From: Vairimorpha necatrix
Lineage: Eukaryota
Length of the DNA: 64,000 nucleotides
Reading direction: 5' to 3'
Assembly: GCA_036630325.1 (NCBI GenBank)
Contig: CP142731.1
Location: 1,054,001-1,118,000, forward strand
In this document: one piece after another, positions 5,801 through 58,002 of the stretch
Layout: each line of letters opens with the position of its first letter
How positions within the stretch are numbered: the first letter of the stretch is position 1
Notes under the pieces: model-generated
Databases searched by the model: none
Seen by the model: only the letters and a program-made list of their open reading frames with translations
What the model was told of the DNA's origin: nothing
Position numbers and translations under genes: made by a program

Positions 5801-6631
5801 CTTACTAACTGTAAAAAATTTAAATTTCACTGGGTTATTGATCTAAGTATATTTACTAAAAATACTGTAAAATTGAAATATATTACATTTATAAACTTAA
5901 TTATGTTCTAAGTTACACTCATAGCGTCTTTAAAATCTTATAGTCTATACATAAAGACTTCATAATCTTCTTATCCTCGGGTTCATCAGACGTTCAAAAT
6001 ATCCATTTTTCTCACTAAGATATCAATTTTAAAATATTCTTGTTTCTTTTGATTCATAAATTTTTTTTCAAAAAATTATTTAACTTTTATAGCAAATATT
6101 TTGTACTGTAAATTTTGTAAAAAATCGCGGAAAACACAAGCGAAGACAAATCTAGAAAACTAGATTATCATCGTGAAACAGCTTTAACATCTTTTAATTT
6201 TAATTATATCCCATGAAATCGACTTTGTTTTCCGAACATTTTTTTGATATAAAAAAATACTATATGATTATAAATTAAAAGACAGTTCTAAAAATTTTAA
6301 ATTCCCCGAATTTGCCATATATACTTCATTATTTGTGTTATTTATTTGTCAAATGATACAATTAGTTACAACCGTCATAGTTATTCATTTATATGCACAT
6401 TGTCATCATTAATATTATTATATATAAGTACGCACTATAATTAAAAATAAATTTTTACGAAAATAGAGAAACCCCTTACATTAATTTACTTTGTTTTTTA
6501 ACATCTAAATGAGCAATATTTCGTCTCTTTTTAGACCCTATTTTAAATTTAATTATAAAATAGTTACTAATCGGAAAAGTTAATTTGAGGCATGACTTTG
6601 CTCTTCAATGCTCCAATTTAAAAACAATACT

Positions 6632-8414
6632 TGTCGCAGTTAGTAGAGGGAACCCTAAAAAAGAGCTCTGTGGGGATCGAACCCAGGACCTCTCGAAGAA
6701 AAACAAAATTTACTAAAAAAGGAAAAAAAATATTATTAAGAAAATACAGTAACATTATCCTTCAATTTTTAGTAAATAATTTTTTGTTTTGTGGGGTTAT
6801 GAGAATAAAAATGGACAATGATAAAAGACAAGAAGTTTATAATTTTTTATTATATGATCAGCTGCCACCAACGTTGTTGGACAAAGTTGATCGTAAAAAT
6901 TTTAAAAGAAAAGCTAAACGTTTCATGTTGTTTGAAGAAAACAACAATGGAAGTTTTGAACTAACTGTGAGGTTTAAAGTAGATCAATATAGATCATTGA
7001 GATTCTTTACAACCAATGAGCAGCGTTTCAAACTGGATTTCATCAAACTGATTCATGTTTCTAATGGACATCCTGGGCGTGACAGATTGTATCCATTGTT
7101 ACAATCAAAAGTATACGACGTTACTCAAAACGAAGTACTGAGAGTTTTGAAAAGTTGTGATATTTGTCAAGCAAGAAGAAACCTAATAACTAGGCCAGTT
7201 ATTAGACCAATCATTTCAAAATATCCTAGAGAAAGGTATATTGCTGATTTGATTGACCTTCGATTGTATCACGAACTCAATGATGGGTATAAATGGTTAC
7301 TTAACGTAGTGGATTCATTTACCAAGTTCTGTTGGACGGTTCCATTGCGTGACAAAACTGGCATTAGTGTGCGTGATGCCTTTGAAACACTATTCAATAC
7401 GTTTGGATCTTGTTTTATACTTCATACCGACAACGGTAGAGAATTTGTTAATCAATATATCGTGAATTTATGTGAAAAGTATGAAATAAGACATGTAAGA
7501 GGATGAGCTAGATGTCCTTGGATACAAGGACAGATAGAACGATGCAATCAAACAATAAAATGGATGATTGCATCTACTCTGAGGTCGAAGAATATCTTAG
7601 GGCAATGGTCCATAGTACGCCAAGAAGTTACCTTCGCATATAACAACTTAAGGCATTCAACAACTAAACAAACTCCATTCAGTTTAATGTTTGGTAAGCC
7701 CATTAAAGACATAATGCAAGAATCTAGAATCACTGATATAATAGATTCGGTTGCAAATAACAACGAAGTTGAAAATGAGGAAGAAGAACGAAGAGAAGAA
7801 TTTGTTTTTGAAGAAAATAACGTCGTAAATTACGAAGAACTATATGCTTTAAACAATGAAAATCTTTTTTTAAATGAAATTTACCACGAATCTGCACGGT
7901 TTAATACTCAAAATGCTGCTAATAGAATGATTGAAAGAAGTATGTGGAGAAATGACTTTTATGAATATAAATTGGGAGATAGGGTTCTTATAAGACCATA
8001 TTTAGACAATAATCAAAGTACTAGAAGGCTTCCTCTATACGAACATTTGGATGTCGATGTATATATTGTAATGGATATACTTCAATTTAATAAAGTAAAG
8101 TTATCTAAAGAAGCTGATCCATTGGTTATTATAGAAGAAATTTACACTAGAGATCTAAGATTGCTTGATAACGAATAAATTTTTTAAAAAAGTTGATTAT
8201 TTTATTTTTTAATTTCTTTTCCCTCCAAATTTATATAAAATTACTCGAAATATACCCCATATTATAATTAGGACAAATTTAGAACCGTCTCAAAAAAGTC
8301 GTTCATTGTGATTGTATTCCTTCGAGAAGTCCCAAGTTCGATTCCCACGGGGTCTTTTTTATAAATTTTTTTAGGGCTCCCTCTACTAACTGGTTCCACC
8401 AACTAACTGTGACA
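6632..8414 (+). mobile_element. Ginger/KRBA2-like integrase DNA transposon
   Basis: TGTC...GACA termini, imperfect TIRs of about 70-100 bp, 5-bp TSD ATACT (6627-6631 and 8415-8419), single integrase gene and no RT. Confidence 0.9.
6799..8178 (+). pseudogene. Gypsy-like DDE integrase/transposase with one in-frame TGA (7504-7506)
   Basis: ORFs 6631-7506 and 7564-8178 are in the same frame. HVSNGHPG...CDIC, ADLID, HTDNGREF, HVRG*ARCPWIQGQIER. Likely start is ATG 6799 after GGGGTT. Confidence 0.88.
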
Positions 8415-9511
8415 ATACTTTCTATAGATTAAAATTTTAAATTTAAAGTAAATGGGTTCTAGCTATAAATTTTTTTAGAAAATAGTGAATTGCATCAAAT
8501 ACAACAAAAATACCTTCAACTATATCAAATACAATGTTTCTTTGGTGCATATCCTTTGGAACTTGCATTGGGAAAATGAACGCGCAATGAAAATAAAAAA
8601 GGGAAAAATGAATTTTTTTAAAAAAAAGAGACTTAAGAATTTAATTTGAATAAAAAAAGAAGATAATTTATACGTCGATTTTTTTTGGTATTGTTAAGAC
8701 CAGAGGAAATGTAAAAGGCACTTATAGAGTTCGTCCTGGTTTTTTATTGTTTATACCAAATATCTCTCTTGGAAAGAAACTATAATCTTACAATTTGTTT
8801 GGTATTGTGTCTCTAAATCGTTAAAGTCTACGAAATTGAATGAGTGATTAACAATCCTGTGCTTCATCCCTGCGATTTATCTATACGTAATCACATGCTC
8901 TTCTAGGTCAGTAATGCAATAGAACTATCTAATACATTATCTTGTATTACCCCATGAAGTATATCCGCATTTCTACTATCCACAGGACAAGTAAGCCACA
9001 CGCTATTCTGCATGAGTAAATATTTTTGTTACCAAAGGAGAGCTGGTTATTGAAGAAGGCTTTTTATTAGAAGAAGAACTATATTTATTTGGCATATTTC
9101 TTATATAGTTTTAGTTTCGGATCTGAAACAAGTATGTTTCAGATCATTATCATTTGTTTCATCTTTCAGTTTTAGTCTAATTATTGGTGAGTGAAACACG
9201 GCCGGTAACAAATTTTAAAATAAAATTTAATTTTATTTTCATATTCAAAAAAATTGTTCTTGATAATTTTGTCGTTTTTATATAAAGGGTCTTTTCAAAT
9301 TTTCATTACGGGTTACAAACAGCCATGCATCTTCTCTTTGTAAAATAGAGATTGACAAGGATATACCCTATCTTTAATTGCTGTATACAAAAATAGGGTA
9401 TAAGTGGGTAAAAATACTTACGTTTAAAAAAACACAAGCAGATAAAAAAACTAAAGACATATATCGTATTATTTTAAATATAATTTTCTAATATGGTAAC
9501 TTGAATACTAT

Positions 9512-54930: not shown

Positions 54931-57900
54931 TCACTTTATCCTTAACCCAAGCAGACTTTTTAGATCATAGTGCCTTTTCTTTACATATCTTCCATTTACT
55001 AACTTAACTATATAAGAATCATTGCCACATCTCTCTATAATTTTCCCACTCTCTAAAAACCTACCTTTCGAATATTTATCCGCACCTTTCAAGTTTTCCT
55101 TCTTAGCTACTCTCACATACTCACCTACTTTAAATTTTTCCCGTTTCCCCCTGTTAAACAGTTTTCCATATTTCCCTTGTGGGCTATTTTCAATCATTAC
55201 ATGTCCAGTTTTATCCTCTGTCGCTTCTATTGGTGTACATTTTAGTGCCGTGTGGTAACTCATATTATATTTTTCAATGCTTCCCATGACCTTCTCTGCA
55301 AATGTACCTTCTTTAGTCTTCAGAATGCTCTCTCGCAGCGTACCTATAACCCTCTCGACTCTGCCATTACTCCTGTGTGATTCGACACTTACTTTCCTAT
55401 GTTTAATTTCTAGTCTGTTACACAACTCTCTAAACCCCTCATTGATAAATTCTCGCCCATTATCCGTTATAATCTCTTCGGGCTTTTTTCCTTGTTCACA
55501 CAACTTACTTAAAAATTCTGTCACATTCTTTCCAGTCTTGTTCTCCATTACCGTGCCCCATACTCTTCGAGTGTAATAATCTATCGCAACCAATACGTAT
55601 TTACCTGCGTCTCTAAAATCAATGAGATCCAAAGCAACCTTTTCTAAATAACGTGTAGTATCTACAAACTCACATCCACCGAGTCTTTTTCTATTATATA
55701 TTTGACATTGTACACACTTTCGAATTGTCTCATTTATGTCCTTCTTTATTCCGGGCCAATAAAATCTTTCCCGCATCGCGTAATATACACTTGTCATACA
55801 TCTATGTCCAACTTTTTCGTGGTATTCCTGCATCAAACTTTCCCTTGACCCTTCTGGTGGTATCTCGACTTTCCGTCCTGAATCAAATCTCCAATATTTT
55901 TTTCCTTCTGCGTCATCGACGTGCGCTTTCCATTTACCCTCTATCTGCTTGGCGGTCCTTTCTCTGATTTTCTTTTTCTTTTCATCGTCTTCCATATGTA
56001 TCCTGCTTAACGCGTCAGCCACCACCATTTCTTCTGGTTTCTTATATTCTATGGTGAAGTCAAATTCCTGGATCTTTTCAATCCATCTATTTATTCTATT
56101 GTTATTAAAACACGGTTTATTTCTAATCTCAACCAAGGCTTTATGGTCCGTCTCGATTTTAAACTTCCTACCGCGCAACTCGTATTCAAATCTTTTTATC
56201 CCCCAAAATACCGCGTACATTTCTTTCTCCGATATAGTATATCTGGTCTCTGTAGGTGTTAACTTTTTTGAACTCCATTGGATTGCTACCCATTCATCTT
56301 TATCGTTCTTCTGAAGTAACACGGCTCCTATCCCTACATTGCTCGCGTCCGTTCTCAATATAAATTCCTTCCTATAATCAGGCAATCTAAGTTTCCCCAT
56401 CGCTCTCAAAACTTCTTTCAGCTCTAAAAACTCTCTATTCATTTCAACCGTCCATTCCCACCTCTTATCTTTACCTCTCAAGCTATCTGTCAGATGAATA
56501 GTTAATCCCGCGTAATTCTTTATAAAGTTCCTAAACCATCCTGTCATTCCTAGGAATCTTCGTGTTTCACTTACACTTGTCGGCTGCGGGAATTCCAACG
56601 CCTCGTTCTTCTTTATTTCATTCGCTTCAATATCTGTACCATTCAATGTGACTCCTAAGAGCTTAACTAACTGTTGGCTAAACTGTATCTTCTCAATATT
56701 CAATCTCATTTTATGTCTTTTTAATCTTTCCAATGCTTCTATAACTAGCTTGTCATGCCTTCTTTTAGTTCTAGCGTGTATAACGATGTCGTCCATATAT
56801 ACCTCCACTCCTTCTCCTTGTAAATCTTCAAATATTTGGTTCATTATTCGTTGTAAAATCTGCGGGGAATTTTCATATCCCATTACCATACTGTTCCATT
56901 CATATACCTTTCTGTTAAATTCAAAGGCCGTTTTGTGCTTATCCTCTTCTTCAATCTCTACGTGGTAAAAGCCTTCCTTCAGATCTATAACGGTAAACCA
57001 TTTAGACCCCTGTGTGGCTCTAACAATGTCCCTAATATTTGACAACTCATACGGATCTTTTTCAACTAAGTCATTTAAACTCATTAGATTACTTACAAGC
57101 CTTACTCCTCCGTTAGGTTTTACTATAGCTCTAATTGGGTTCCTCCACTCGGATGTTGATCTTCTTATAATCTTTCTTTCTTCCAAACTTTTTATATATT
57201 TTTCAGTTTTTTTCATCAACGCCTGTGGGATAGTTTGTCCTCTTTTAACTACTTTTTTCCCTGGTGGCGTCTCAATTTTACATTTCTCTATCTTACAGTG
57301 TACGATCTCTTCCTGCTGTAAGTCGAAAATTTCTCTAAACTTCGCTTTTATATCTTCAATGACAAGGCCCTCTTCTATTCTATCCTCTCTCATTCCTCTC
57401 CTTTTTGAATTTTGTTTACGTTTTGCTTCTCCGCATTTCCTATATTCTTGTGCGCTAAGTTCTGTGCTTGTAGATCCACTCTCTTCATAAACAATTCTAT
57501 ACTTGTTAAAATGTTTATTTTTATTATCTTCTTCTTTCCTCTTCCTTACGAAGCAATCTCTTGCCATGTGCCCAAATCTACCACAGTAAAAACAATCTCT
57601 ACTTCTTACTCTCGTAGTTTCTTCCCTTATTTTTCCTAATGCTCCTCTATTTGCCAGCTCCTCTCGAACTGTTCCTCTAACCGACTCTGCAATTATTTCC
57701 ATCATCTTACTTTTGTCTTCTTCTTCCTTCTTTTTTAATTCGTCCTTTCTAACCTCCTTTTCCATTTCTTCAATAATTAAGGACCAACTATCTTCTTTTT
57801 TAATTCTTTCTACAATAAAGTTCTTTACTTCTTCCGAACCCATTTCATAAATTCTTGCCTTCCATAGAGACTCATCTACTCCATCCAACTCTAGCTTATA

Positions 57901-58002
57901 AACTATTCTTTTAATTTCTTGTAACATTATTCTGGCCTCTTGACCACAGCCATCACTTGTTGACTCTCGATTTGGTATCGCCCCCATGTATTTATTTATC
58001 AT
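54931..58002 (-). CDS. Gag-Pol polyprotein, single intact ORF (1023 aa from ATG 58002)
   Basis: Same domains as copy 1. First ATG lies inside the LTR after CCCCC; a second in-frame ATG at 57987. Confidence 0.95.
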   Translation of the reverse strand: MINKYMGAIPNRESTSDGCGQEARIMLQEIKRIVYKLELDGVDESLWKARIYEMGSEEVKNFIVERIKKEDSWSLIIEEMEKEVRKDELKKKEEEDKSKMMEIIAESVRGTVREELANRGALGKIREETTRVRSRDCFYCGRFGHMARDCFVRKRKEEDNKNKHFNKYRIVYEESGSTSTELSAQEYRKCGEAKRKQNSKRRGMREDRIEEGLVIEDIKAKFREIFDLQQEEIVHCKIEKCKIETPPGKKVVKRGQTIPQALMKKTEKYIKSLEERKIIRRSTSEWRNPIRAIVKPNGGVRLVSNLMSLNDLVEKDPYELSNIRDIVRATQGSKWFTVIDLKEGFYHVEIEEEDKHKTAFEFNRKVYEWNSMVMGYENSPQILQRIMNQIFEDLQGEGVEVYMDDIVIHARTKRRHDKLVIEALERLKRHKMRLNIEKIQFSQQLVKLLGVTLNGTDIEANEIKKNEALEFPQPTSVSETRRFLGMTGWFRNFIKNYAGLTIHLTDSLRGKDKRWEWTVEMNREFLELKEVLRAMGKLRLPDYRKEFILRTDASNVGIGAVLLQKNDKDEWVAIQWSSKKLTPTETRYTISEKEMYAVFWGIKRFEYELRGRKFKIETDHKALVEIRNKPCFNNNRINRWIEKIQEFDFTIEYKKPEEMVVADALSRIHMEDDEKKKKIRERTAKQIEGKWKAHVDDAEGKKYWRFDSGRKVEIPPEGSRESLMQEYHEKVGHRCMTSVYYAMRERFYWPGIKKDINETIRKCVQCQIYNRKRLGGCEFVDTTRYLEKVALDLIDFRDAGKYVLVAIDYYTRRVWGTVMENKTGKNVTEFLSKLCEQGKKPEEIITDNGREFINEGFRELCNRLEIKHRKVSVESHRSNGRVERVIGTLRESILKTKEGTFAEKVMGSIEKYNMSYHTALKCTPIEATEDKTGHVMIENSPQGKYGKLFNRGKREKFKVGEYVRVAKKENLKGADKYSKGRFLESGKIIERCGNDSYIVKLVNGRYVKKRHYDLKSLLGLRIK
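57971..57986 (-). promoter_or_regulatory. Primer-binding site, probably tRNA-Pro
   Basis: TGGGGGC start is as in tRNA-Pro-type PBSs; the host tRNA was not checked. Confidence 0.6.

Follow-up and report, generated by a model that had tools for sequence, protein, structure and literature searches.

Outward-facing tRNA-type boxes at the ends of a Ginger-superfamily DNA transposon of Vairimorpha necatrix and of related families in its genome

The DNA analyzed here, called the window, is a stretch of 64,000 nucleotides from the genome of Vairimorpha necatrix (assembly GCA_036630325.1, contig CP142731.1, positions 1,054,001 to 1,118,000 of the forward strand). It contains a DNA transposon of the Ginger superfamily, here assigned to family A (Table 1). 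An earlier note on this DNA had described TGT..ACA ends, a 5-bp target site duplication (TSD) and a single nonsense codon for the element, and the coordinates of all three agree with the sequence. We identified the Pfam domains rve and Integrase_H2C2 in the transposase, which is encoded by a single open reading frame (ORF) with neither reverse transcriptase nor RNase H. In the transposase alignment, H86, H91, C123, D150, D211 and E247 are invariant and C120 is nearly so. The element has the terminal inverted repeats (TIRs), TGT termini and TSD of the Ginger superfamily, and is a cut-and-paste transposon of this group.

Table 1. Features of the family A element and its flanks (positions in the window)
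Feature	Position	Strand	Remarks
Ginger-superfamily DNA transposon, family A	6632..8414	+	1783 bp; 12 copies known
Left 5-bp TSD	6627..6631	+	same 5 bases as 8415-8419
Right 5-bp TSD	8415..8419	+	same 5 bases as 6627-6631
Left outer TIR	6632..6662	+	TGT end, one 17-nt unit, A6 run
Right outer TIR	8367..8414	+	two 17-nt units, ACA end
tRNA-Ala(AGC)-like 23 nt (variable loop + T arm)	6671..6693	-	22/23 match to host gene
Left B box, outward	6673..6683	-	21.0 bits; first ATG 116 nt away
AT-rich interval between B box and ATG	6694..6798	.	putative Pol II promoter of the transposase
Transposase gene (H2C2 zinc finger, rve core)	6799..8178	+	459 codons, one TGA
Right B box, outward	8335..8345	+	18.1 bits; T-stem not kept
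T6 run beyond right B box	8355..8360	+	

The outer 26-nt arm of the TIRs is 96% complementary and the inner 49-nt arm, which holds both B boxes, 76%. The 17-nt unit is doubled in the left outer TIR of several family A copies, and is probably the unit bound by the transposase. A GGG signal stands directly before the ATG in the interval between the left box and the gene. The ORF of the window copy is interrupted by a TGA at 7504-7506, and the open 459-codon frame is present in some other copies. A public sequencing run has a different letter at 7504, the first base of this TGA. Contigs of public run X1 contain family A, may not be independent data, and include no empty-site joint for the family. 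The copies of family A, one of them split by an insertion, are 94-100% identical. The genome searched comprises 15.0 Mb on 12 contigs, and all copy counts are lower bounds, drawn from searches and individually retrieved stretches. A match to microsporidian SSU rRNA lies in L127, and the closest of the named transposase homologues are microsporidian. Elsewhere in the window, two near-identical gypsy pol genes (50-2962 and 54931-58002) lie 52 kb apart in opposite orientation and surround clusters of lineage-specific signal-peptide-like paralogues.

The earlier note had reported an outward B box near each end of the element, and both strings that it quoted were located in the window. Each box is kept throughout the family copies collected (left, 12/12; right, 12/12). 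A- and B-box matrices were derived from the tRNAs of this genome (50 distinct sequences, 63 genes). On the B-box matrix, each of the 12 left ends scores 13.5 bits or more and each of the 12 right ends 18.1 bits. The left box of the window copy fits the B-box pattern exactly and the right box with one mismatch. The score of the left box was reached by none of 1000 shuffles, and no position of the window outside the element scores 17 bits or more on the B-box matrix. The note saw no A box in the element, and family A has none: its best A-box matrix scores are below 0.

The proposal that the TIRs are derived from tRNA holds at the left end, where 22 of 23 nt agree with tRNA-Ala (AGC) and where a match this good to the tRNA set was found in none of 200 shuffles that kept the box. 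The right end shares only the box with tRNA. There the match was equalled by 112 of 200 such shuffles, and the description of this end as a tRNA 3' half is not supported, as no likeness to tRNA beyond the box exceeds the control. Pairing in the T-stem is 4/5 at the left and 1/5 at the right. A genome-wide search with the left 22-mer returned 16 sites, which are 11 family A copies and tRNA-type sequences; the control returned none. Rfam gave no tRNA match in the element and 16 related loci, and ARAGORN called no tRNA at the element ends; its calls at a lowered threshold with introns allowed were spurious and were discarded. A gapped pattern search missed known minus-strand sites and served as a lead only. 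The left B box of family A is a tRNA-derived site that stands head to head with the transposase gene.

Two further expectations were not borne out. The T-run beyond each box, read before as a Pol III-type terminator, is not conserved, the left one being T5 in several older copies. Nor are the boxes measurably better kept than other non-coding sites within family A, whose copies are too alike for a difference to show: we counted 2 and 0 changes per 121 box sites and 53/1903 and 43/2497 elsewhere.

The ORF of the sister family B has about 80% DNA identity to that of family A. The TIR units of the two families differ, and family B has a B box at its right end only, at the same place as the right box of family A. 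This box has its full form in 9 loci and has lost its invariant A in 6, five of which form subfamily B2 (5 copies, 95.5% mean identity). The right box occurs in both families and is therefore older than the split between them; the left box of family A was either gained later or lost in family B. Only one of 37 family B loci has a left B box, and it lies within an inserted SINE. In this old copy (L290) the SINE entered the left end in outward orientation, and its B box now stands at 97 nt from the ATG; heads may have been gained in this way. Family D (L111-L118) is an animal-type, KRBA2/SCAND3-like Ginger. Its copies measure about 2.75 kb, have long TIRs and are 99% identical, and none of the 8 loci has a box of any kind. 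This family clusters with metagenome rows, apart from the other families, and was possibly gained by horizontal transfer from an animal host.

Protein searches identified further families with TGT ends and 5-bp TSDs. The transposases of families C, E, F, G and H are about 27-35% identical to that of family A, and the left ends of these elements have an outward A box and B box 41-52 nt apart. We called B boxes at 10 bits or more and A boxes at 9 or more, with the B box 100-140 nt from the inferred ATG, and tallied 56 loci after 7 rows had been dropped (5 duplicates and 2 gypsy-like hits). Both boxes are present in 33 loci, B only in 5, A only in 5 and neither in 13. Inspected by eye, the 13 boxless loci are truncated, interrupted or decayed copies plus one probably domesticated gene. 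In nine lineages the observed box scores were reached by 0-2 of 1000 shuffles. In several copies of family F the invariant C of the B box is changed alike, and two copies of family C have a weakened box in common; such copies can putatively be moved in trans.

In three family G loci (L128, L135 and L276) the left ends have been swapped for other sequence at the same point, beside a short palindrome. The probably domesticated gene (L306:920-1846; G000:C5, about 817720-818650) is a single-copy, Ginger-derived open frame with altered catalytic motifs; it has neither TIRs nor tRNA boxes, and GC-rich tandem repeats lie upstream of it. Decayed B boxes (L130, L133, L267, L268, L279, L280 and L285) often differ at the core CG, which suggests a C-to-T bias at CG sites.

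The distance from B box to ATG is 107-136 nt in the second clade and 114-117 nt in family A, and that from B box to element end varies from 52 to 391 nt. The fixed reference point of the boxes is the start codon of the transposase rather than the TIR. The chance for the 41-nt distance band is about 0.002. These distances bear on the thought that the boxes are a motif, bound by the transposase or otherwise sub-terminal, that resembles a B box by chance. A loose B-box pattern is indeed common (9 matches in the window against 8.46 expected, not above chance), and the boxes of family A lie in the inner TIR and are half palindromic. Nevertheless, a position tied to the ATG and not to the element end, the match to 23 nt of host tRNA, and the A boxes at tRNA spacing in other families make this the least credible of the explanations weighed here.

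Exact matches to the B box number 181 in the genome, compared with 6 for the control, and among 40 that we sampled many belong to SINEs. The source of many of them is a tRNA-headed, A-tailed SINE family of about 790 bp with some target duplications (L142-L145, L147, L158, L165, L167-L169, L172, L173, L175, L177 and L179). A repeat of more than 4 kb (L141, L171, L174 and L176) has an internal tRNA-like head with A and B boxes and is mostly non-coding DNA. Boxes in other element classes were rejected as cases of convergence: in L146, L148 and L156 the box is part of a SINE-related piece, in L170 it lies inside decayed protein-coding sequence, and in L153-L155 it is the primer-binding site, for tRNA-Ala, of a small TRIM-like element. 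This element (about 1940-2730) has terminal repeats of about 55 bp, and its primer-binding site is unusually long; in L154 and L155 the site is complementary to tRNA-Ala including the CCA and reaches into the T arm.

We placed the families in a quick maximum-likelihood tree of 33 rows with SH-aLRT support only, made up of 16 of about 130 loci from this genome, 5 of 85 outside loci, 11 of 27 homologues and one gypsy integrase. Homologues named from Dictyocoela, Nosema granulosis and Octopus scaffolds fall together with families A and B, which are joined to the KRBA2-like family D at only 87 SH-aLRT. Families C, E, F, G and H form a separate clade together with the probably domesticated gene (support 98). 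L181 and L182, the closest outside relatives of this clade, have no box. Among the 85 outside loci, many of them on contigs too short to reach the element ends, a head with A and B boxes was found in one element only (L185/L186), where it is SINE-like and lies 240 nt from the ATG. The box arrangement probably arose at least twice, as full A and B boxes in C, E, F, G and H and as a B box only in family A, given that A and the second clade are separate in the tree and that the sister family B lacks the left box.

Repeated gain in a genome so rich in SINE heads could have a neutral explanation, in which tRNA pieces or SINE heads fell into the AT-rich left ends of the founders and have been carried without function. 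L290 shows that a SINE can insert outward in a left end, families B and D thrive without a left box, and the near-perfect match of the left piece to its tRNA suggests recent capture. We consider this explanation unlikely, however, as the heads align neither with the SINE head nor with one another beyond the boxes, both boxes keep close to the consensus in young families with only about 45-50% transposase identity, and orientation and spacing are the same in the two clades.

What is kept in the heads also indicates how they might act. Between lineage groups the A box is 0.70 and the B box 0.77 identical, compared with 0.24-0.29 for spacer and stems, a comparison with some circularity, since its alignment was anchored on the boxes. 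Alignments made without this anchor give a mixed picture. Group G puts the B box at rank 2 among 189 windows and the A box at rank 11. For group E (nine lineages, mostly decayed copies) the A box is at rank 10 among 199 windows and the B box at rank 136, and for F/H the A box comes at rank 144 and the B box at rank 71 among 189. A cloverleaf is not kept in the heads, whose acceptor stems pair at 0-5 of 7 positions. A run of four or more T is present within 25 nt in 62 of 63 host tRNA genes; the heads of E, E2 and G lack such a run, the nearest in H is at least 193 nt away, and C has a run of T5. The boxes are thus kept without cloverleaf, terminator or other alignment across families, which points to conservation of a DNA binding site for a protein, with its spacing, rather than of a tRNA-shaped RNA.

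The same evidence bears on the notion that the heads are small Pol III genes with an active RNA, such as a guide, a decoy or a source of small RNA. It is favored by the 42-52 nt that separate the A box from the B box in C, E, F and G, and by the T5 run of C. Without common structure or terminator, with poorly pairing acceptor stems, no Rfam tRNA match, no A box in family A, and a transcript that would run away from the ORF with no overlap with its mRNA, the notion comes close to implausible.

The boxes could instead aid transposition, either because TFIIIC joins the two ends or because the boxes steer insertions to Pol III sites. Boxes at both ends in inverted orientation, as in family A, would fit the former, but the other families are boxed at one end only. 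Targeting to tRNA genes, which had been suggested for this element, was not found: none of the 12 family A copies lies within 5 kb of a known tRNA gene, and their median distance to one is 138 kb compared with 91 kb for random places. No family is closer to tRNA genes than random, in a test that used 66 tRNA genes, an incomplete set to which one further Ala-type gene can be added. The insertion target is instead a simple AT-rich palindrome: of 37 insertions, 36 have an A before the TSD and all 37 have a T after it. A role in transposition is accordingly very unlikely.

Tau95, a subunit of TFIIIC, is encoded in the genome. For the subunit that binds the B block, the Pfam model had no match in the genome and no candidate passed a first look. 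Of 32 host tRNA genes with long flanks, three face an ORF head to head across 71-82 nt. Among them, a tRNA-Asn gene (L036:1501-1644) is at 71 nt from a gene for the second-largest subunit of an RNA polymerase, probably Pol III. For comparison, the +1 predicted for the element heads is 59-84 nt from the ATG. The head-to-head geometry is compatible with Pol II expression, and may be merely the smallest possible spacing. The same geometry at 60-85 nt may also serve some host genes.

The genome further encodes an Argonaute, an EZH-like SET protein and a small chromodomain protein. Thus, repressive chromatin from which an element would have to be shielded may exist. The SET protein (L307:1459-2922) is the sole SET-domain match in the genome and is closest to EZH1/2 of PRC2, and the chromodomain protein (L308:946-1683) is HP1-like; neither was expected in a reduced parasite.

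TFIIIC is known to bind B boxes and to load TFIIIB on AT-rich DNA upstream, and in yeast and human the TFIIIC-only sites lie between divergent promoters and act as boundaries (PMC3395662). Microsporidia have canonical boxes in their tRNA genes and CCC/GGG signals in their transcripts (PMC5499648). From the arrangement of boxes and genes, we give about an even chance to the reading that the left boxes are a TFIIIC site, gained twice, that is head to head with the transposase promoter and aids transposase expression. Host TFIIIC would bind the left B box. In families with an A box, and perhaps in family A as well, it would then place TFIIIB/TBP on the AT-rich interval, which would double as the Pol II promoter of the transposase. 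The bound complex could hold the short promoter open and shield it from repressive chromatin at any landing site. A second boundary would come from the right-end box, which family B has as well. More tentatively, and with some doubt, DNA transposons may twice have taken up tRNA boxes as a portable enhancer-blocker, with TFIIIB/TBP on the shared interval driving or licensing divergent transcription by Pol II, and so carry their own open chromatin to wherever they insert.

The main evidence against a role in expression is that families B and D have spread without a left box, which is not needed for success. Subfamily B2, in which the only box has lost its invariant A, and the changed or weakened boxes shared by copies of F and C also count against it. 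So do the low ranks of the B box in group E and of both boxes in F/H, the lack of measurably better conservation within family A, the boxless relatives L181 and L182, and the missing match to the B-block subunit.

Yeast tRNA genes can dampen nearby Pol II promoters. The opposite effect on the transposase was also considered, namely that a bound Pol III complex dampens its promoter and so limits harm to the host. The geometry supports such self-restraint as well as it does an aid to expression, and TFIIIC-only sites have a marginal link with weakly expressed genes (PMC3395662). Self-restraint appears distinctly unlikely, given that a true tRNA gene stands in this geometry to the RNA polymerase second-subunit gene, and that the youngest of four sets compared, family C at 99.6% identity, has the complete module.

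The feature is real and extends beyond the window copy; the mechanism is putative. If an aid to expression is its function, a DNA transposon secures its expression and escapes silencing via the binding site of a housekeeping Pol III factor. The families would be a natural, repeated experiment on the effect of TFIIIC and TFIIIB on a neighboring Pol II promoter, and as boxed and boxless families occur side by side in this genome, the controls would be built in. The module of about 150 bp would also be a candidate insulated promoter. Pol III signals outside tRNA genes are unexplained in this lineage (PMC5499648).

Ginger elements have been recorded in microsporidia before (PMC5751038). The elements described here resemble Ginger2/TDD (Bao, Kapitonov and Jurka 2010, PMC2836005) in their TGT ends, TIRs and one integrase-like transposase with H2C2 and DDE motifs, and also in AT-rich targets, a 5-bp TSD of the type of TDD-4/5 and the absence of OTU/Ulp1. 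Other Ginger2/TDD elements have a TSD of 4 bp. Family A is shorter, at 1.8 kb compared with 2.7-6.7 kb for Ginger2/TDD (PMC2836005). The 4-bp CCGG/CCGT TSD of Ginger1 is absent; TSDs are AT-rich in the 37 elements with a 5-bp call. Of the other traits of Ginger1, OTU and Ulp1 gave no Pfam match, and no GPY/F was seen by eye in the alignment. By eye, an aromatic-P-aromatic-aromatic pattern is present upstream of the finger, most clearly in P0013; the N-terminus may thus be YPYY-like, which would be a trait of Ginger1 (PMC2836005), and the likeness to Ginger2/TDD is a tentative guide to the subgroup. Boxes derived from tRNA have no mention for Ginger in the available sections of PMC2836005. No earlier account of tRNA-type boxes in the ends of DNA transposons was found in titles and the openings of abstracts of openly accessible papers.

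The TRIM retrotransposons Cassandra and Ajax have LTRs that contain a 5S promoter for Pol III (PMC10946416). Like the elements described here, they are mobile and keep an internal promoter of a host Pol III gene near their ends, and they are non-autonomous retroelements in which the 5S promoter is thought to drive their own RNA (PMC10946416). In contrast, the Gingers are autonomous DNA transposons with tRNA-type boxes that point away from the coding sequence. TRE5-A of Dictyostelium (PMC3159450) and the Dada DNA transposons (PMC3706591) are likewise mobile and linked to Pol III genes, but through their insertion sites, which are in or close to tRNA or snRNA genes of the host (PMC3159450, PMC3706591). 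The Gingers carry the boxes themselves and show no such targeting.

The ETC sites of yeast and human and the B-box IR/COC boundaries of fission yeast share with family A a B box without a tRNA and a position adjoining a divergent Pol II promoter, with a boundary role that is putative here (PMC3395662). Those sites are fixed in the host and TFIIIC binding to them has been shown (PMC3395662); ours are mobile and putative. The ends of family A have a B-box consensus without a tRNA gene, as do ETC sites. A and B boxes at tRNA spacing, as in a tRNA or other type-2 Pol III gene, are found in families C, E, F and G and not in family A. In trypanosomes, a tRNA or tRNA-like gene that lies upstream of an snRNA gene in divergent orientation supplies the A and B boxes that drive the latter. 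This is the same design of a head-to-head, tRNA-like module that serves a neighboring promoter. The neighbor in trypanosomes is a Pol III gene, whereas here it is a protein-coding gene, which we assign to Pol II because of its internal T-runs.
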